A stretch of DNA of 64,000 bases, taken from IMG/VR virus record IMGVR_UViG_3300010885_031309; one strand, given 5' to 3'. The notes below the pieces were generated by a model. The model ran no database searches and was not told where the DNA came from. It saw nothing but the letters and a program-made list of their open reading frames with translations. Shown one piece after another: positions 2,759 through 62,520 of this stretch; position 1 is the first letter of the stretch, and the number at the start of each line of letters is the position of its first letter. The translations under genes were made by a program, and so were the position numbers. Source of the stretch: a virus (Duplodnaviria > Caudoviricetes).

Positions 2759-2765
2759 ATAAATA
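2759..2765 (+). promoter_or_regulatory. T4-type late promoter core ATAAATA
   Basis: The same heptamer precedes many genes: + strand 5645, 6164, 7891, 24549, 29154, 31660, 48284, 48830, 51565, 53770, 55082; - strand 37907-37913, 62485-62491, 63047-63053. It resembles T4 TATAAATA. Confidence 0.75.
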
Positions 2766-2787
2766 CTTTATATTTTGGACCATAATC

Positions 2788-5211
2788 ATGGCTAACATCA
2801 GAAAATTAATTGACATTATTAATGAAACCAGTGCAGGTGCAACTTCATCTGGAAGCGTATCGGTAGTTGAGCAACCGTTATTGAAGCAAAGTAGAGTTGA
2901 AACTCCAGAAGCTCCGCAAATACTTGAATATGGAATGTGGGAGAATAGTGTACTTGCGACCAATAAAAAATTAAAAAAGACTCGCACTAAGGCACGTGAT
3001 GTGGTCAAGAAAATATATGGCGAAGACCAACCAGACAAGCAAAGTGTGTCAGAAAACTCAAAAAAAGTAGCAAAGAAAAAGAGCGACGGTATTCTATGGC
3101 GCGTAGAGCAATCAGAAGCAACTCTAAGATATTATGTTGTCAAGGGCCATCAAAACAAAGAATACTGGACCAATAAGCTAGGGGCTTCTGACTTTAATAA
3201 TAAATCTGATGCTGAAGCAAAAGCAAATGAATTGAATAATAAAGTAGATGAAGGATTCAGTGGTGCTGCTGCAGGAGCTATTGGTGGAGCAATTTTTGGA
3301 AAATCGCCACAGGCGGCTGTAACAGGAGCTAATATTGGTAGTAAAGTACAAGACATGTTTTCTAATGAAGATGTGGCGGAAGACAGCTTACAAGAAATAG
3401 GATACGCTGACAGCCTTGATGATGCTAATTATCCAATAGATAGACTTTTAAAAATCGGTAAGTTATACGATACCATTGAGGGCAATAAAGTAATGACTGC
3501 TGCCACGGGATCAGAAAAAGTGTATTTTTTAGTAGTAGATGATCAAGTTACTGCCTTCTTGGGATTCAAAAATAATCATCTAAAAAACATAAAGAATTTT
3601 ACAAAAACTCCGGGCGTTATCAGAGCGCTGATAGGGTGTTTAGTACACAAGCATGGTCAAAAAATCATTATTTCCAATAGTGAACCACTAACATCAGACG
3701 GTAAAAAATGGGTGCTTCATCTGATACAATCCCCGCGGGGGCTAAACATAGTAGATCAAAACGGCAAGCAGATTGATAGCAGATCGCTAAAACAAGAATG
3801 GTTAGAGGCACGAAAAACTAGCATACCTGGACCTACCAGTGTAGTAATTAGCGAGAACTATGAATTTGGTAATAAATTGCGAGAAAATGAATCGTTGAGA
3901 GAAAGCAATTCATTGCTTATGCCATATCAGTTTTACGACACAAAAATTAAAAAGCAAGTTGTGGCGGAAGCTTTAGTTAATGAAATAGGATTTGCAAATG
4001 AATTAGGCAAATTGTCAATGTCTGAACAAGATATTCTGAATAATAGCATCGTTGACGGACAAATAGGACAGCGAGATGTAATGAGATTTGAAATAGACAA
4101 TAATGCATTATACTTTTTTTCTGGAAAAAATAAAATTGAGGCTCTATTATTGTTAGATGGCTCCAGATTAGCAGCAATAAAAAACTTTACTCAAAATAAA
4201 GGTTTAATTCATGGTTTGTTTAATTACGTAGTGAACATGAAGAGAAAAAAATTAAGAATTGATCCTAATGATCAGTTGTCCCCGTACGGAATAGATTGGT
4301 TACTAAAACAGATTGAACGATCAGATGGTATTAAGATCACCGATTTAAATGGAAAATCAATTAATGCTGATGAATTGAGAAATGAATGGAATAAATCTAA
4401 ATCAGATTCTGATCAAGCCCCAGGATCAATCGGTATTATAATCGGTGAATCTGCTATGGGAAAAAGATTACGAGACAATGAACGCTCATTGATGCCATAT
4501 GACATATTTGGGGTCAATAAACATATTAATAAAGAGCAAGATGTGACGGAAGGCTGGAGCAAAAAGTACAAGCGTAGTATTGATTGCTCACATCCTAAAG
4601 GATTTAGTCAACGCGCTCATTGTGCCGGAAAAAAGAAACACAACGAAAGCATTGAAATGGAAATGATTTGCCCAGATTGTAATATGTGCGAAACACATGG
4701 CAACAACATGATGGAAGTCAAACAGCGATTAGATGCAAAATGCTGGGCGGGAAAACACAAAGAAGGAACTAAGATTAAAGGTGGGGTCAGAGTTAATAAC
4801 TGTGTTCCAAACGAAAGCGTTAGTGAAGATGGAATGTCATTCGGTAATATAGCTTCTGCTTCAATTGGTGGTGGAACAAGTAGCGGCACTAGTGATGGCA
4901 CAAAAATGTTTTTGGAAACAGAAAATGAGCCTAAAGTTAGACGATACAAAGATAACTTTGGACAAGATCATTGGGAAGTTTTAGACTGGAAGGGTCATCG
5001 CGTAATAAGTTTTACTAATCGTTCAGCGGCGCACGAATATCTAAAAAAGAATTTGTATCGTTTAATTGATACTGAAGAATTAGAAGAGGGTGAAAACAAA
5101 CGCATCAAGGGTGGCGACCCATGCAGAAAAAACTATCAAATGGTAGGCATGAAGCAAAAAAACGGTAGATCAGTTCCTAACTGCGTACCAGTATCAAAAA
5201 AGAAAAAGTAA
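2788..5211 (+). CDS. Modular polyprotein with leader, glycine zipper, two tandem GNAT-like domains and Cys-rich mini-modules
   Basis: Start moved to MANIRKLIDIINE, downstream of the late promoter. Duplicated domain of about 180 aa (EIGYAD..MPYQFY / EIGFAN..MPYDIF). Linkers EDVAED, QVVAEA, QDVTEG. Confidence 0.75.
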   Translation: MANIRKLIDIINETSAGATSSGSVSVVEQPLLKQSRVETPEAPQILEYGMWENSVLATNKKLKKTRTKARDVVKKIYGEDQPDKQSVSENSKKVAKKKSDGILWRVEQSEATLRYYVVKGHQNKEYWTNKLGASDFNNKSDAEAKANELNNKVDEGFSGAAAGAIGGAIFGKSPQAAVTGANIGSKVQDMFSNEDVAEDSLQEIGYADSLDDANYPIDRLLKIGKLYDTIEGNKVMTAATGSEKVYFLVVDDQVTAFLGFKNNHLKNIKNFTKTPGVIRALIGCLVHKHGQKIIISNSEPLTSDGKKWVLHLIQSPRGLNIVDQNGKQIDSRSLKQEWLEARKTSIPGPTSVVISENYEFGNKLRENESLRESNSLLMPYQFYDTKIKKQVVAEALVNEIGFANELGKLSMSEQDILNNSIVDGQIGQRDVMRFEIDNNALYFFSGKNKIEALLLLDGSRLAAIKNFTQNKGLIHGLFNYVVNMKRKKLRIDPNDQLSPYGIDWLLKQIERSDGIKITDLNGKSINADELRNEWNKSKSDSDQAPGSIGIIIGESAMGKRLRDNERSLMPYDIFGVNKHINKEQDVTEGWSKKYKRSIDCSHPKGFSQRAHCAGKKKHNESIEMEMICPDCNMCETHGNNMMEVKQRLDAKCWAGKHKEGTKIKGGVRVNNCVPNESVSEDGMSFGNIASASIGGGTSSGTSDGTKMFLETENEPKVRRYKDNFGQDHWEVLDWKGHRVISFTNRSAAHEYLKKNLYRLIDTEELEEGENKRIKGGDPCRKNYQMVGMKQKNGRSVPNCVPVSKKKK

Positions 5212-5230
5212 AAATATAACAAGACTGATC

Positions 5231-5611
5231 ATGCGAGCTAAAGAATTTATATTAGAATCCAACAGTGTTGTTAAAATAAAACAGCGACTTCCTAAAAATG
5301 CAGAGTCTGCAATGACGGGTGCTCATAGAGTTGCCGGAACTCTAGATCGCACATACGACTTGAACAGAATTATGATGTTATTGGCTGGGACAGATGGTAA
5401 AAATCATACACACGCTTCTCCTCAAAGCTGGGCTGGAAAAAATAATACTGCACATCCATATACCGTAGAAGAACTAAAAATGCTTAAACATGTATATGCT
5501 CTTGCAAATATAGAATGGGATGATGTTATTGCACAAAATTCCTCTAATAAAAGCACTGAACTAGATGACACGAATAAGCGTAGTCCAGTTAACTCATTTA
5601 AGGGATATTAA
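5231..5611 (+). CDS. Hypothetical protein with MRAKEFILE leader
   Basis: ORF with the leader motif shared across the window. Confidence 0.75.
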   Translation: MRAKEFILESNSVVKIKQRLPKNAESAMTGAHRVAGTLDRTYDLNRIMMLLAGTDGKNHTHASPQSWAGKNNTAHPYTVEELKMLKHVYALANIEWDDVIAQNSSNKSTELDDTNKRSPVNSFKGY

Positions 5612-46828: not shown

Positions 46829-48040
46829 ATGTCAGAAGTAATTCATTTTCAAGAATGTTCATTTTGTGGGAAACACAAAAGTGTAGTAAAAAAACTAATA
46901 GTTGGAGACGGAACTGCTATTTGTAGTGACTGTGTTGAACTTTGTAATAGTCTCTTACTAGAAGAGAATGATTCTATTTCAAGTGTAGACAACGAAAAAA
47001 CCAGTTTGTATCCAGATAATATTAAATCATATTTGGATCAATATATTATTGGACAAGATCGTGCCAAGATGATTCTTAGCGTGGCGGTCAGTAATCATTA
47101 CAAAAGAATTAAAAATAAAGAATCAACTATAAAAATTCAAAAAAGCAATGTATTGATTCTAGGCCCAACTGGAGGCGGCAAAACATTGTTGGCAAAAACC
47201 GTAGCCAATTATCTGGATGTACCGTTTGTTGTGGCCGATGCAACAAGTCTTACTGAGGCCGGGTATGTAGGAGACGATGTTGAATCAATGATTGTTAGAC
47301 TGTTGGCGGCAGCAGATGGTGACATTGAAAAAGCACAATGTGGAATTGTATTTATTGATGAGATAGATAAGATTGCTCGTAAAAGCGAAAGTGCTAGTAT
47401 TACTAGAGATGTTTCTGGCGAGGGTGTACAACAGGCTCTACTCAAGCTGGTTGAAGGAACAGTTTGTCGTATTCCTCAAAGCGGTAAAAGAAAGAATCCA
47501 AACAATGACATGATAGAAATAGACACAAGCAATATTTTGTTTATATCTGGTGGTGCATTTGTTGGATTAAATGAAATTATTGCAAAAAGAGTTGATGGAA
47601 ATAGTATTGGATTTGAAGCAAAAATTCAAACACACAAAGATGAGATTGATTATTTGAGTCTAACTACCCCTGATGATCTTACTAAATTCGGAATGATACC
47701 AGAATTTACGGGAAGATTTACCAGTAGAGTTGCTATTAGTCAGTTAACCAAAGAACAATTAATTCAAATCTTGTTGAATGTTAAAAACAGTTACATAGAG
47801 CAGTATCAATATTTGTTTCAACTTGACGGAATTAAATTACTGTTTGACAGCAGTGCAATAGAAATCATAGCGGAAAATTGTCTTGCTCTAAAGACTGGCG
47901 CTCGTGGCTTGCACAGTGAAATAGAAAGAGTATTATTACCACATATGTTTAACATTCAAAGTTATTTGAAGCAAGATATCAAAAGCATAAATATTACAGC
48001 ACAATTGGTAAATGAACCAAAATGTTTATTGGAGAAATAA
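46829..48040 (+). CDS. clpX: ATP-dependent Clp protease ATPase ClpX
   Basis: Zn-binding CSFCGK..C..C; GPTGGGKT; [11 protein letters not shown]; FIDEIDK; [14 protein letters not shown]; TGARGL. Confidence 0.95.
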
Positions 48041-50346: not shown

Positions 50347-50955
50347 ATGACAGAAACACAAGAGACTGATATCACTTCTTACTCAGAAGAGTTGAATAAA
50401 GCTGGAATATATATATTCATGAATGAAGTTAACAGTGAAACTGTTAAGCCAGTAGTTGAATGGATACTACATGAAAATTATGTTTCTAAACAAAAGAAAA
50501 AAGAATTATTGTTAATGATATGCAGTCATGGCGGAGATTTGGCGGCTGCTTTTGCACTGATTGATGTAATGCACAACAGCGCTATTCCAATTAAAACTGT
50601 TGGCCTTGGCCAAATTGGAAGTTCTGGTCTGTTGATATTTATGGCTGGCACTCGCGGCAGGCGTATACTAACACCAAACACAAGTATTCTTAGTCATCAA
50701 TTTAGTTGGCACAACGAGGGTAAAGCTCATGAACTTTTTGCTACACTCCGTGAGCTTGAATTAACGCAGACACGCATGATTGATCATTATAGAAAATGCA
50801 CTGGTGCAGATGACAGCACTATAAAAGAATATTTATTGCCCGCACAAGATCGGTGGCTCAGTGCTGAAGAGGCGTTGAATCTTAAAATCTGTGATGCGAT
50901 CAACATGTCAAATCAAGTAATAACTCAATCAACCATTAATAGAAAGGTAAAATAA
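50347..50955 (+). CDS. ClpP-family protease (divergent)
   Basis: ICSHGG, IGSSG nucleophile region, [15 protein letters not shown]. Confidence 0.8.
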
Positions 50956-50956
50956 A

Positions 50957-51565
50957 ATGGCATTAGTACCAATTGTTATTGAACAAACAAGCAAAGGCGA
51001 GAGAAGCTACGATATATATTCCAGATTATTGCGAGACCGAATCGTCATGCTTACAACAGATGTTAATGAAGTATCGGCAAGTTTAATTGCTGCTCAACTC
51101 TTGTTTCTAGAGAGTGAAGATGATAAAAAGGACATTTACTTTTACATCAATAGTCCCGGAGGTAGTGTCACTGCTGGTCTAAGTATTCTTGACACAATGA
51201 ATTTCATAAGACCAGATATCAGCACCATTGTAATGGGACAAGCATGTAGTATGGGTAGTTTGCTTGCTAGTAGTGGAGCAAAAGGTAAGCGTTATATGTT
51301 ACCTAACAGTCGTCATCTAATTCATCAACCACTTGGCGGAGCCAGTGGGCAAGCAAGTGATATTCAGATCCAGGCAAAAGAAATTCTTCGTATGAAGAAA
51401 CAACTAACCGAGATATATGTACAAAACACAGGCAAGCCTTACGAGCAACTAGAGCGAGACATGGACCGTGATAACATCATGACTCCCGATGAATCAATTG
51501 CTTATGGATTAGCTGATAAGATTATCACCGCTAGAGAGGCGCGCCCAGAGACTTCGTTAATTTGA
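50957..51565 (+). CDS. clpP: ATP-dependent Clp protease proteolytic subunit
   Basis: [39 protein letters not shown]. Confidence 0.95.
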
Positions 51566-56506: not shown

Positions 56507-56704
56507 TTATTCTTTTTTGTTGATTTTTGTAATTTCAGAGTAGGTTACAATTTTTCCGTTACTCAAAAGATATTTTGAACCTTCAACAGCAGTGACACTA
56601 CATGATTGTCCTTTATATTGTACAGTGTCACCAGCTTTAATTGGATTCTGACTATATGATTTATAGCTGTTATAGCCCTCAACAAGCACTTCGTGTATTT
56701 TCAT
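56507..56704 (-). CDS. Small SH3/KOW-like protein with an MKIHEVLVE leader
   Basis: IKAGDTVQYKG..C.VTAV. Confidence 0.65.
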   Translation of the reverse strand: MKIHEVLVEGYNSYKSYSQNPIKAGDTVQYKGQSCSVTAVEGSKYLLSNGKIVTYSEITKINKKE

Positions 56705-57975
56705 GATTCATCCATTTTAGTATTAAACCAGGGATCAACTATTACCAGTGTACCATCTTTGCGTTCCATGACATTTTCGGTATGTAGATCCCAGCCCTGT
56801 TTATCTAGCTTTCCACGCTTGTATAATAATCTCATCATTGAATAAAGAATATCAAACTTTACATAAGTCATTGCATCCAGGGACTTTAATTTTTTGATTA
56901 ATTCTTTATCAGTCGGCGGAGCATCCCAATGCTTCCATGTAGTTGGCTTTAACATTTCCGTGTAGGCTTGTTCCCAAGTCTTATCTTTTGCAGCTAGATC
57001 ACTCATCATCCATACTAGTGCTTGACTAAAACTACCGTCTTTTAATGGGCGTAGTCGTTCCATGCCAATCATAGTAAATTCGCGATTGTCTGCTTCAAAA
57101 GTAGCGTGATGGCCATCCTTTGTAATTTGTACAAACTTTGGTAGATTTGGTTGATCACTATTTTTCATACAGAATTCATAAAATAGCTTGAATGTTTTAA
57201 CTGCACCACTCATACTATCACGATCTTCTGGCATAATAATTTTGATAACGCTCTCGTCGTCTTTTGCCCAGACTGTTGCTTCAGCGCCACTTCCTAATTT
57301 TTTGTATCCCATTTCCTTGAATACTTTGTTTATTTCTTTTGATGCTTTGGTTCTAGTTTCTGCTTCGCTGATTAAATCAGAATTATTCAATAATTTTACT
57401 GATCCGTTATCGTTGACAAAGTATGGAAAGAATTTAATATCCGGATATTCTTGCTTTAATTTTGAAAATACACGAAGATTGGTCATGCTATCATCATACA
57501 TACTAACACGATAGTAGCGACCAGTATCTAAATATCGTCTGACAAATACTGCTTTTCTTTCTGCTGGTGTAGTTGGTTGTTCTAAATTTCCAGCACGATG
57601 TACATGTACGCGACTCATATCTATACCATACTTGGCAAAAGTTTGTAGAAATGTGTCGCGATCATCAAAATCACTACGAGCAGTAAGCATTATGATTTTA
57701 CAATTGGTTGCTACTTTAAGTATTGCTTTTAGTTTAGCTATCATTGGTCTGATAGGCTCACTCTCACGATTGAATTTTTCTGCGTTACGAAATTCTCCAA
57801 AATCAAACTGTTCATCTGGTTCTGGTTGATATGTATTGTATTCTTTATTGGTAAGACTACGAACTACTTTACCATTTTTGATGACATTTATTTTAGCCGT
57901 AGTATGAAACAGCGTGTCATCTATATCCATGATTATTAGATGTTCAGACTTTGAGTTTATATCTCTAATTCTCAT
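56701..57975 (-). CDS. HAD-superfamily phosphatase fused to a protein-kinase-like domain
   Basis: DIDDTL, LTARS, YDDS..NL; LGSGAEATV..VIKI...DLHTENVM..VIVDP; junction LISEAE. Confidence 0.8.
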   Translation of the reverse strand: MRIRDINSKSEHLIIMDIDDTLFHTTAKINVIKNGKVVRSLTNKEYNTYQPEPDEQFDFGEFRNAEKFNRESEPIRPMIAKLKAILKVATNCKIIMLTARSDFDDRDTFLQTFAKYGIDMSRVHVHRAGNLEQPTTPAERKAVFVRRYLDTGRYYRVSMYDDSMTNLRVFSKLKQEYPDIKFFPYFVNDNGSVKLLNNSDLISEAETRTKASKEINKVFKEMGYKKLGSGAEATVWAKDDESVIKIIMPEDRDSMSGAVKTFKLFYEFCMKNSDQPNLPKFVQITKDGHHATFEADNREFTMIGMERLRPLKDGSFSQALVWMMSDLAAKDKTWEQAYTEMLKPTTWKHWDAPPTDKELIKKLKSLDAMTYVKFDILYSMMRLLYKRGKLDKQGWDLHTENVMERKDGTLVIVDPWFNTKMDES

Positions 57976-58503: not shown

Positions 58504-59946
58504 TTACATCACAAATATTTTACCAACGCTGTCACTCAACACATCATTGAACAACAATTCCATTGTATATGCTAAACGTTCGGCTTTTTGCTTTCTTGAA
58601 AGTTCATCACGATATTCAGGTTTAATGTTTAGATATTTTGTAGGTGTTCCCCATGCTTGTCTTCCGTAACCTAAATTAGTTGGTAATAGATTAAACGTGA
58701 CTTTGCCTGTGCCTAAATATTGTGCAAATATTTCATATAAGAATTCATATGGACGTTTAATCTGATTACTTCTACTACTACGTTGTGTGCCTAATGCATT
58801 GAACAGTGCATTATACTCGGGGGTCAAATCCCACTTGATTAGAGTATTGTATGTGTTTGCACCCCTATATGCTTTGCCATAGTGTTCTTCTAACACTGAA
58901 TTTACAGTTTCAAAGAAATACTTTTCTGCTTCAGCCCAAGCCTTCCAATTCTTGTTTTCATATGCAGCCTCTGCCCCTATAGCGTGTCCAAATCTATGTG
59001 CCATCATCCATGGCGTAAGCATTACTTTACTATCACCCTTGTTGCCCACATACACTACAGTTATAGCATCTTCACTGCCATTGATAATTTCTTCAGCCTG
59101 TTCTTTACCAAAAATTTGCATAATCTGCTCTGGGGGCATTGCACCGTATTCACTATACTTCCCAGTGCCGGGCACGTTACTAAAGAATAAACGGAAATCG
59201 TAGGGTGTTTTTTCAAAGAATGTAGTAGCTTTTTCTATGTTCTTGGGATGTGGCACAAGGTTTTTATCTGCTCCGCGAAATGGTCCTGGCTTAGTAAAGT
59301 CACCAAACGGTTGATACTTGGCTAATGCCATTTCACCTACTGTGTCTTCCGCCACGCCTTGGTTTGGTCTGCTTAATGTATGCTTTTCTGTTCTATAATC
59401 GTATGTAGCACCTAACTTCTTATATATTTCTCTTGCTGCGTTGTTATGGTCTTGATCAGAAATGATATTGTAGTGCTTGGACAATCCTTTTAGAAAGTCA
59501 GTGTAAATGCCTTTGCCTCTTAACTTTTCATCAAAGACTTCAGAGTATTGAACTTCAACCGTATCGTTGTAAACATCGGCCCAAACACCTAATACTGTTT
59601 TACCTTTACTGTCTTTCACTCTAATAAAGGTGTTTGCTTCAGCGCCAGATTTCCAGGGTACTTCGTCACCGGGTTCAAATGACCATGTGTAGCCCGATGG
59701 TGTTTTGCCGCTGACAGATTCCGTAACATCTTGCTTGTCAAGTTTCTCTAAACGATGTATCTCATCGGCAACCTGTGTCCAATAACGATATTGTGGAGTA
59801 TTACTTTCATAACTCATGGCATGGTCGTTGGCACGTTGAGCAGCAGTATAGGAATGATCTTTATACCGATCATACATTCGTTTTGCCGTTGACTTTACTT
59901 CTAAGTCACTGGAATTATTTTCAACAATAAAATCATTTGCTCTCAT
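58504..59946 (-). CDS. Polyprotein: small helical module + GNAT + HRxGH zincin-like domain
   Basis: MRANDFIVE leader; linkers QDVTES and QGVAED; RGKGIY..A..IY.KLG; WMMAHRFGHA. Confidence 0.8.
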   Translation of the reverse strand: MRANDFIVENNSSDLEVKSTAKRMYDRYKDHSYTAAQRANDHAMSYESNTPQYRYWTQVADEIHRLEKLDKQDVTESVSGKTPSGYTWSFEPGDEVPWKSGAEANTFIRVKDSKGKTVLGVWADVYNDTVEVQYSEVFDEKLRGKGIYTDFLKGLSKHYNIISDQDHNNAAREIYKKLGATYDYRTEKHTLSRPNQGVAEDTVGEMALAKYQPFGDFTKPGPFRGADKNLVPHPKNIEKATTFFEKTPYDFRLFFSNVPGTGKYSEYGAMPPEQIMQIFGKEQAEEIINGSEDAITVVYVGNKGDSKVMLTPWMMAHRFGHAIGAEAAYENKNWKAWAEAEKYFFETVNSVLEEHYGKAYRGANTYNTLIKWDLTPEYNALFNALGTQRSSRSNQIKRPYEFLYEIFAQYLGTGKVTFNLLPTNLGYGRQAWGTPTKYLNIKPEYRDELSRKQKAERLAYTMELLFNDVLSDSVGKIFVM

Positions 59947-62461: not shown

Positions 62462-62520
62462 AGACTAAATCTTAGTTGATTTAGTATTTATGCGTGATTT
62501 GCCGATACTGTAACTGTTAT

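Follow-up and report, generated by a model that had tools for sequence, protein, structure and literature searches.

The closest described precedents for the system analysed here come from the heads of large tailed phages. In phage T4, the internal proteins (IPI, IPII and IPIII) and Alt carry a short N-terminal leader, the capsid targeting sequence (CTS), that ends in hydrophobic-x-Glu; the cut that removes this 10-residue CTS from the internal proteins falls at its last Glu, and the prohead protease gp21 has the specificity L/I-x-E (PMC9026906, PMC10052503). Asp in place of this Glu prevents processing in T4 (PMC9026906). In the giant phages, head proteins of the phiKZ gp175 and SPN3US gp245 type are cut after Glu at A-x-E at several sites per protein, the enzymes of these phages have the specificity S/A/G-x-E or A-x-E, and processed head products are ejected into the host (PMC10052503, PMC9026906). 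Here we describe a 64,000-nucleotide (nt) stretch of viral DNA, IMG/VR record IMGVR_UViG_3300010885_031309 (Duplodnaviria; Caudoviricetes), called the window below, in which the open reading frame (ORF) at 2788-5211 (+) encodes an 807-residue candidate polyprotein, P0001. Its modules are bounded by a short Glu-ending joint that recurs throughout a large protein family, is conserved as DNA and evidently serves as the point at which modules are exchanged, while the N-terminus of P0001 reads as a mimic of the phages' own capsid maturation site.

Like the T4 proteins, P0001 has a short N-terminal leader ending in hydrophobic-x-Glu, its family shows diverse cargo behind a conserved tag, and related genomes encode a gp21-type protease. 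Unlike in T4, a single ORF of this family holds up to about nine cargo modules with a cleavage-type motif between each, in P0001 the leader precedes a copy of the capsid segment that lies past the maturation cut, the joint is conserved as DNA and serves as a crossover point, and the cargo includes predicted enzymes and, in relatives, proteins with twin-arginine translocation (Tat) signals. With the phiKZ and SPN3US proteins it shares a three-residue Glu-ending motif and several sites per protein, and we infer cleavage and ejection for P0001 as well. However, the cuts in those phages mostly remove N-terminal propeptides of single proteins, and neither shuffled cassettes nor a nucleotide-conserved joint is described for them in PMC10052503 or PMC9026906.

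Another precedent is the polyvalent proteins, i.e., polypeptides of 2 to 15 unrelated domains with extensive mosaicism that are predicted to be packaged and delivered with the DNA, whose repertoire includes GNAT domains and for which release of domains by proteolysis has been proposed (Iyer et al. 2017, PMC5512222). P0001 resembles them in its several unrelated domains and in the mosaic architectures of its relatives, but has none of the Pfam domain types of that study, e.g., the MPTase peptidase (E <= 1). Processing of polyvalent proteins was proposed to be autoproteolytic by the MPTase domain, while that of P0001 would occur in trans at a defined, repeated site, and a conserved linker is absent from that paper ("linker", 0 occurrences). 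Finally, P0001 recalls the polyproteins of picornaviruses and potyviruses in its single ORF with short motifs between units and in the virus-encoded protease proposed for it; it differs from these RNA virus proteins in belonging to a double-stranded DNA (dsDNA) tailed phage, in the capsid-maturation enzyme that we propose and in the shuffling of module order among relatives. The CTS/gp21 system and multi-site processing of head proteins are already known; the joint, the capsid mimicry and the evidence for recombination are new here. We found no paper on the joint, on its nucleotide conservation or on mimicry of a capsid cleavage site, and literature searches on the joint peptide, DUF6321 and DUF5872 returned nothing relevant, the matches to the joint string being papers on alpha-synuclein.

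The ORF predicted in a preliminary description of this DNA, made from its letters alone, holds: the exact protein occurs on two independent metagenome contigs, and the ATG at 2788 is a start common to homologues, whose N-termini read MSDIRKLINIISE and MTSIKKFIDIVSE. A search space of 5.8 billion proteins yielded 189 matches to P0001, each of which covers one or a few of its segments in varying order and position. Over more than 240 relatives from metagenomes, homology breaks at amino acids (aa) 196-199, 388-396, 582-590, 680 and 767, and these breakpoints coincide with VAE198, VAE394, VTE588, VSE680 and LEE767. The bead-on-string layout with boundaries at VAE, VTE and LEE that had been proposed is thus borne out by breakpoints at the motifs; a further boundary proposed at "NES" does have its breakpoint at aa 680, but the motif proper is NESVSE.

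From its N-terminus, P0001 begins with a 13-residue leader, MANIRKLIDIINE (2788-2826, +, as are all P0001 features below), which ends in I-N-E and is a candidate targeting or propeptide cut site by its likeness to homologue N-termini and its IPII/IPIII-like chemistry. A Gly/Ser/Thr segment, TSAGATSSGSVSVVEQPLL (aa 14-32; 2827-2883), follows that resembles the capsid region just past the predicted maturation cut, and then a glycine-zipper-like stretch (aa 153-184; 3244-3339). Joint 1 (VAE196-198, GTGGCGGAA; 3373-3381) is a homology breakpoint behind which the predicted local distance difference test (pLDDT) falls below 50. It is followed by GNAT-like module 1 (aa 199-394; 3382-3969; AlphaFold2 (AF2) pLDDT 80), which ends in joint 2 (VAE392-394, GTGGCGGAA; 3961-3969), and by GNAT-like module 2 (aa 395-588; 3970-4551), which ends in joint 3 (VTE586-588; 4543-4551) with GTGACGGAA, a one-base variant of GTGGCGGAA. 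The Cys/His module (aa 589-680; 4552-4827) has 80-87% identity to segments of more than 100 proteins and ends in NESVSE (4819-4827); behind it lie a disordered linker (aa 681-709; 4828-4914; pLDDT 41-49) and a beta3-alpha mini-domain (aa 710-767; 4915-5088; AF2 pLDDT 80-95 for aa 710-760) ending in LEE765-767. The protein closes with a Cys hairpin mini-module (aa 768-807 and stop codon; 5089-5211), which has homology from aa 767 on, matches PHROG 9737 (E 3.4e-12), forms its hairpin at aa 783-801 (AF2 pLDDT 88-90) and is paralogous to the final third of the Cys/His module. AF2 was run on P0001 as two sub-models, neither of which includes aa 1-198.

The glycine zipper, two GNAT-like repeats and Cys/His modules expected from the letters were all located in that order, the GNAT-like fold by structure prediction and the zipper below threshold: Pfam has nothing above threshold on P0001, and its sole sub-threshold match is to Gly-zipper_YMGG (PF13441; E 0.0029, 17.7 bits vs the gathering cut-off of 28.9). 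Because aa 88-155 and aa 700-770 have no detectable similarity, the two "beta-alpha modules" do not emerge as relatives. By eye only, the GGGTSSGTS stretch of the disordered linker, its second Gly/Ser/Thr stretch, resembles the N-terminal segment.

At the protein level, the joint is strongly over-represented. Across 121 relatives of P0001, VAE occurs 312 times compared with 30.8 expected, and 282 distinct, unrelated contexts give the consensus (E/K)(Q/E)-G-V-A-E↓G (↓, known or proposed cut) with nothing conserved further out. Around the Cys/His module, the upstream flank nearly always reads ..(Q/E)GVAE ahead of a conserved Trp but is otherwise unrelated between proteins, and the downstream flank reads NCVPNE(S/G)(V/I)xE. 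The P1 position, two residues before this Trp, is Glu in all 77 of 77 distinct upstream flanks, and P3 is hydrophobic (V/I/L/M/F) in 64 of the 77 (vs 2.1% at random positions); downstream, [VILM]-x-E falls within 9 residues in 51/76 flanks (vs 13.8% at random). BLAST high-scoring segment pairs showed an enrichment of their ends near V-x-E of 2-3 fold only, since such ends are fuzzy, and were replaced by these register-exact counts. The P1 Glu is retained despite differing codons and differing P2 and P3 residues (YNE, LDE, LNE, VEE), which argues for selection at the protein level. The AF2 models place the joints in low-confidence or disordered, and hence presumably exposed, stretches that separate the folded units, with pLDDT below 50 at the flanks of residues 198 and 394 and at VTE588 and VSE680. 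This fits the expectation that linker Glu residues stay outside folded domains, except at LEE767, which sits at pLDDT ~58 in the tail of a predicted helix.

The joint is also conserved as DNA, a property absent from the preliminary description that could explain part of the motif's conservation. Its sequence, GGT GTG GCG GAA GG, uses rare codons: at GVAE joints, GGT accounts for 100%, GTG for 81%, GCG for 94% and GAA for 90% of codons, compared with 45%, 19%, 8% and 82% in the background of the same ORFs. VAE tripeptides outside joints have ordinary codons, and codons inside the Cys/His module vary freely among the same loci. Across 58 distinct contexts, conservation is restricted to about -9 to +11 nt around GTGGCGGAA, giving an element of ~18 nt, (CAA)GGTGTGGCGGAAGG(C/T). 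In the window, GTGGCGGAA occurs three times (0.2 expected), each time as an in-frame joint (3373, 3961 and, on the minus strand, 59347).

Identity between relatives stops at these joints. Locus L009 is 99% identical to L010 over the 150 nt upstream of the joint and unrelated downstream, while L010 is 97% identical to L012 downstream and unrelated upstream, and all four upstream-downstream combinations are present. Likewise, window nt 3952-4555 (604 nt), i.e., GNAT-like module 2, share 98.3% identity with a stretch of the P0003 gene, which cannot otherwise be aligned, and this stretch starts and ends within the two joints. Module exchange has therefore been recent and joint-bounded, and the joint is by all appearances an in-frame crossover point for modules among related phages. 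Since its DNA doubles as a crossover point in this way, the family behaves as a combinatorial cassette system.

T4-type phages are believed to exchange variable genes by way of short conserved sequences that flank the modules. A 1994 study by Repoila et al. reportedly found short conserved sequences to be recombination points behind the polymorphism of the T4-type IP1 locus, and Arbiol et al. are said to have described promoter-stem-loop cassettes in the same role in 2010. Unlike both, the patch in P0001 lies inside a coding frame, preserves that frame and encodes a protease-type site.

The joint is tied to T4-type leaders by its register. Where the Cys/His module stands at the very N-terminus (37 distinct proteins), it is preceded in 34 by a nine-residue leader of the consensus M-K/R-A/I-N/S-E-F/I-I/L-T-E, whose last Glu aligns exactly with the Glu of the joint. 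Leader and joint can thus stand in for each other, and both would leave the same mature N-terminus. The T4 record (NC_000866) has MKTYQEFIAE↓A in IPII and IPIII, ..ITE↓A in IPI and ..FLTE↓A in gp23, and the joint consensus fits these sites as well as the L/I-x-E of gp21 and the A-x-E of giant phages. The leader of P0001 itself is of the kind known from gp21 substrates, i.e., about 10 N-terminal residues ending in hydrophobic-x-Glu. Many unrelated ORFs of the window have such CTS-like leaders (e.g., MRAKEFILES, MKTNEITLTE, MRANDFITEY or MRAYQFITEQ), namely those at 5231, 5659, 7904, 8481, 10241, 12781 and 24580 (+) and at 56704, 58501, 59946, 60883 and 62461 (-). As a side observation, one leader-bearing ORF at 56701-57975 (-) has a weak Kinase-PolyVal match (E 3e-4, below the cut-off) together with DUF2608.

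In P0001 and 52 other proteins the leader is followed by the Gly/Ser/Thr segment, as in IINE-TSAGATSSGSVSVV of P0001 or YVLES-ASGGGTSAGSVASV of a relative. We searched a profile of leader and segment against all ORFs of two related genomes, G001 (a complete 322.5-kb relative, 379 ORFs) and G002 (437 ORFs). In G001 it matched solely the genome's own polyprotein and the N-terminus of the major capsid protein (E 1.1e-5), and in G002 solely the capsid protein (E 1e-4). Five capsid proteins of related phages, identified by PF07068 (E 1e-81 to 1e-99), have N-termini of the form ..L-A/M-E↓S/N-A-T/S-AGAT-S/Q-AGNVATLNRVILPVIRR (residue by residue, L-A/M-E↓S/N-A-T/S-A-G-A-T-S/Q-A-G-N-V-A), with ..LAE↓SATAGATSAGNVATL as one reading, and this region is homologous to T4 gp23 just past its known cut. 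In four proteins the capsid-like segment is internal, each time directly behind x-x-E. The N-terminal segment of P0001, judged by its letters, thus mimics the stretch around the predicted maturation cut in the phages' own major capsid protein. Separately, a G001 ORF at 210325-210942 (-), which lies ~3.5 kb away from the genes for portal and head proteins, begins with the CTS-like leader MRIHDLIIE, contains a long region of glycine-zipper type or low complexity and resembles the N-terminal part of P0001.

A candidate enzyme is at hand in the relatives. All five of five long module-carrying contigs, one of which is the complete 322.5-kb genome, encode a gp21-type protease (Peptidase_S77, PF03420; E 1e-25 to 1e-29), and in each its gene adjoins the scaffold and capsid genes. 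In G001, it is the ORF at 203110-203739. Four relatives moreover have complete internal twin-arginine signals, SRRGFL(K/R)G..AAGAA (P0057 at aa 671, P0068 at aa 111, P0093 at aa 878 and P0105 at aa 349), with an AHA↓Q signal-peptidase site in two. These signals stand directly after Glu-ending sites, VAE↓D in two proteins and MDE↓D or KNE↓D in the others, and SRR is preceded by Leu rather than Met in two of the four. Because a twin-arginine signal is functional only at an N-terminus, internal ones make no sense on an uncut chain.

We therefore read P0001 as a late-expressed precursor that would enter the prohead and yield about six products through cuts behind Glu residues, and put the probability of this reading at roughly 60%. 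Circumstantial support comes from five independent lines, namely the match to L/I-x-E, the interchangeability with leaders, the capsid mimicry, the Tat signals and the protease in 5/5 contigs. The predicted exposure of the joints, the stand-alone module genes of some phages and the late-promoter-like motif ahead of the gene also speak for it. The leader ending in I-N-E and the capsid-like segment would draw the protein into the assembling prohead, where a gp21-type serine protease (Peptidase S77) would cut behind the Glu of the leader and of every joint between modules. The predicted products of about 4-22 kDa, several of them basic, would be a glycine-zipper piece, two GNAT-fold proteins, a basic Cys/His piece, the beta3-alpha mini-domain and a basic Cys hairpin, and these would be retained in the head and accompany the DNA into the next host.

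Several points weigh against this reading. Cleavage and virion location of P0001 are deduced from sequence, and the protease and capsid protein were read in relatives rather than in the window's own genome. Three of its six proposed sites are non-canonical (INE13, VSE680 and LEE767), one of these within a predicted helix tail, and [VIL]-x-E is so loose that ~11 chance occurrences are expected in 807 aa. The gene also lies amid metabolic and replication genes, outside the head module. Finally, given rare-codon conservation and joint-bounded recombination, recombination or gene conversion could keep the motif without any protease.

This last point leads to the main alternative, which we consider unlikely: an uncleaved multidomain ("polyvalent") protein in which the joint is a flexible linker whose DNA is kept as a homology patch for in-frame exchange. 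The nucleotide-level conservation with rare codons and the crossovers placed exactly at joints, with 97-99% identity on one side only, speak in its favour, and uncut packaged multidomain phage proteins are known, e.g., the N4 virion RNA polymerase (PMC5512222). However, a linker of this kind leaves unexplained why the P1 Glu persists in 77/77 flanks despite differing codons, why a T4-type leader at the N-terminus can take the place of the joint, why Tat signals sit inside the chain and why the N-terminus mimics a capsid cleavage site. Less probable still is that another phage or host endoprotease cuts the polyprotein in the cytoplasm of the producing cell and that the products act there, e.g., after Tat export, without being packaged. 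The position of the gene outside the head-gene module would suit this, as would the Tat segments behind Glu-ending internal sites, which suggest a need for release in the cytoplasm; yet no candidate Glu-specific cytoplasmic endoprotease was identified, the ClpX and ClpP of the window being processive degraders, leader and capsid mimicry point to the prohead, and proteins ejected into a new host could still undergo Tat export. That the modules are separate translation products from internal starts in a stop-less array, with the junction RNA as ribosome-binding signal, is very improbable and was rejected because, for all the faint Shine-Dalgarno likeness of AAGG/GGTG in the joint and the Met that starts two Tat segments, no start codon follows the joint at usable spacing (G/D/A/E and then W or S come in frame), Leu replaces Met in the two other Tat segments and uninterrupted frames are kept across hundreds of clusters.

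Returning to the packaged and cleaved precursor, we extend it more tentatively, and at somewhat less than even odds, to a system: T4-like jumbo phages of lakes and oceans may run combinatorial effector cassettes in which the ~18-nt (CAA)GGTGTGGCGGAAGG is both protease site and exchange patch, so that sets of head-packaged proteins co-injected with the DNA are re-dealt, with entry into the head by capsid mimicry and export of some products to the host periplasm by Tat. If cleavage occurs as proposed, a tailed dsDNA phage would be using a polyprotein strategy coupled to its capsid-maturation protease, for which we found no description in the literature that we searched. It would also bear on how packaged anti-host proteins diversify, as one short sequence would be protease site and recombination joint at once. 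The family concerned is large, with the Cys/His module alone in 3,064 representative clusters at E <= 1e-3 (711 at E <= 1e-10), and, judging from the internal Tat signals, the periplasm may be one destination of phage proteins that are injected or released. Practically, the joint could provide a rule by which the sequence of an uncultivated jumbo phage predicts its mature products and injected proteome, and it is a candidate natural, portable "cut-here" linker that, together with the targeting tag, might serve to engineer cargo for phage capsids.

The idea of precursors cut by a gp21-like prohead protease came from the preliminary description, which had applied it to other proteins of the window as well, and for these it lacks support. 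None of the boundaries named for those proteins (KLPES, EQLTE, LISEAE, MLNE and VDE) equals the canonical joint, whose sole copy in the window outside P0001 is NQGVAE↓D (GTGGCGGAA; 59347-59355, -) within the ORF at 58504-59946 (-), which has the T4-type leader MRANDFIVE.

The two ~195-residue repeats of P0001, aa 199-394 and aa 395-588, are paralogues of each other (identity 29%, E 8e-24), and their predicted fold is GNAT-like. VIA-align gave a best Z of 7.8 with almost all of the 50 matches listed belonging to the GNAT superfamily, the ESM-Atlas comparison gave template modelling (TM) scores of 0.59-0.62 to viral GNAT clusters, and Foldseek matches were weak (E 2e-3 to 1e-2), with none in the PDB at E <= 1e-3; Pfam has no GNAT match in P0001. 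At the site of the acetyl-CoA motif Q/R-x-x-G-x-G/A (beta4-alpha3 turn) the sequence is K-T-P-G-V-I, or N-K-G-L-I-H in repeat 2. Because this is non-canonical by eye, acetyltransferase activity of the modules remains putative. In an alignment, the GNAT-like family is bracketed by VAE..LxE at the start and KQGVAE at the end.

The Cys/His module contains C-x-H..H-C, C-x2-C-x2-C-x2-H and a Cys hairpin, i.e., CHHC- and CCCH-like spacings, and AF2 folds it confidently at aa 640-674 only, the last third with helix and hairpin. It stands at the N-terminus, internally or at the C-terminus of proteins of 77 to ~1,300 aa, and some phages have small stand-alone genes composed of their own leader and this module.

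Upstream of the P0001 gene, a ATAAATACT motif at 2759-2767 (+), 21 nt ahead of the start codon, is similar to the T4 late promoter TATAAATA, which T4 late genes have at a similar position. The motif occurs six times in the window compared with 1.56 expected (0/100 shuffles attain six), at 2759, 5645, 6164 and 7891 (+) and at 62483 and 63045 (-), always on the coding strand and 5-30 nt ahead of a gene start. It has the look of a late-promoter variant proper to this phage, and we infer promoter function and late timing from it. The strict T4 form TATAAATA was considered and set aside, since it shows no enrichment in the window (6 vs 6.6 expected) and the variant ATAAATACT alone does. By eye, sigma-70-type TTGACA-17-TATAAT boxes lie upstream of 18458, 20573, 37981, 42214 and 53207; these genes are replication and repair genes, e.g., for RNA ligase and DNA ligase, in contrast to those behind ATAAATACT.

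The window derives from a freshwater jumbo phage that is uncultivated and belongs to the T4 supergroup, and its family-B DNA polymerase (PolB) is ~47% identical to those of PA5oct, Atu_ph07 and SCTP-2. Neighbours of the P0001 gene encode RimK, a GT4 glycosyltransferase, ferritin, a zeta-type kinase, an amidoligase-GGCT fusion, a deaminase, UvdE and ligases. The setting is syntenic with G002, where a cluster of leader-bearing, joint-rich polyprotein genes (126360-137752, -) lies beside the PolB gene (120954-123611), the window counterparts being P0001 at 2.8 kb and PolB at 15 kb. Also present in the window are genes for a ClpX homologue that combines a zf-C4_ClpX finger with an AAA_2 domain (46829-48040, +) and for two adjacent ClpP paralogues, one strong (50347-50955, +; E 1.9e-79) and one divergent (50957-51565, +; E 1.2e-27).

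No cultured close relatives were found, and tblastn on isolated phages returned a 30-50-aa piece of the Cys/His module in cyanophages only. Proteins of two cultured T4-like cyanophages, gp108 of Synechococcus phage S-SM2 (L135, 1186-1614) and one of Prochlorococcus phage P-TIM68 (L136, 994-2115), have a CTS-like leader (MKTLKQFLKE or MMKSFIDFSE) followed by a capsid-like Gly/Ser/Thr stretch. They also hold the first third of the Cys/His module with x-x-E ahead of it, and their genes adjoin tail-fibre or major-head genes.

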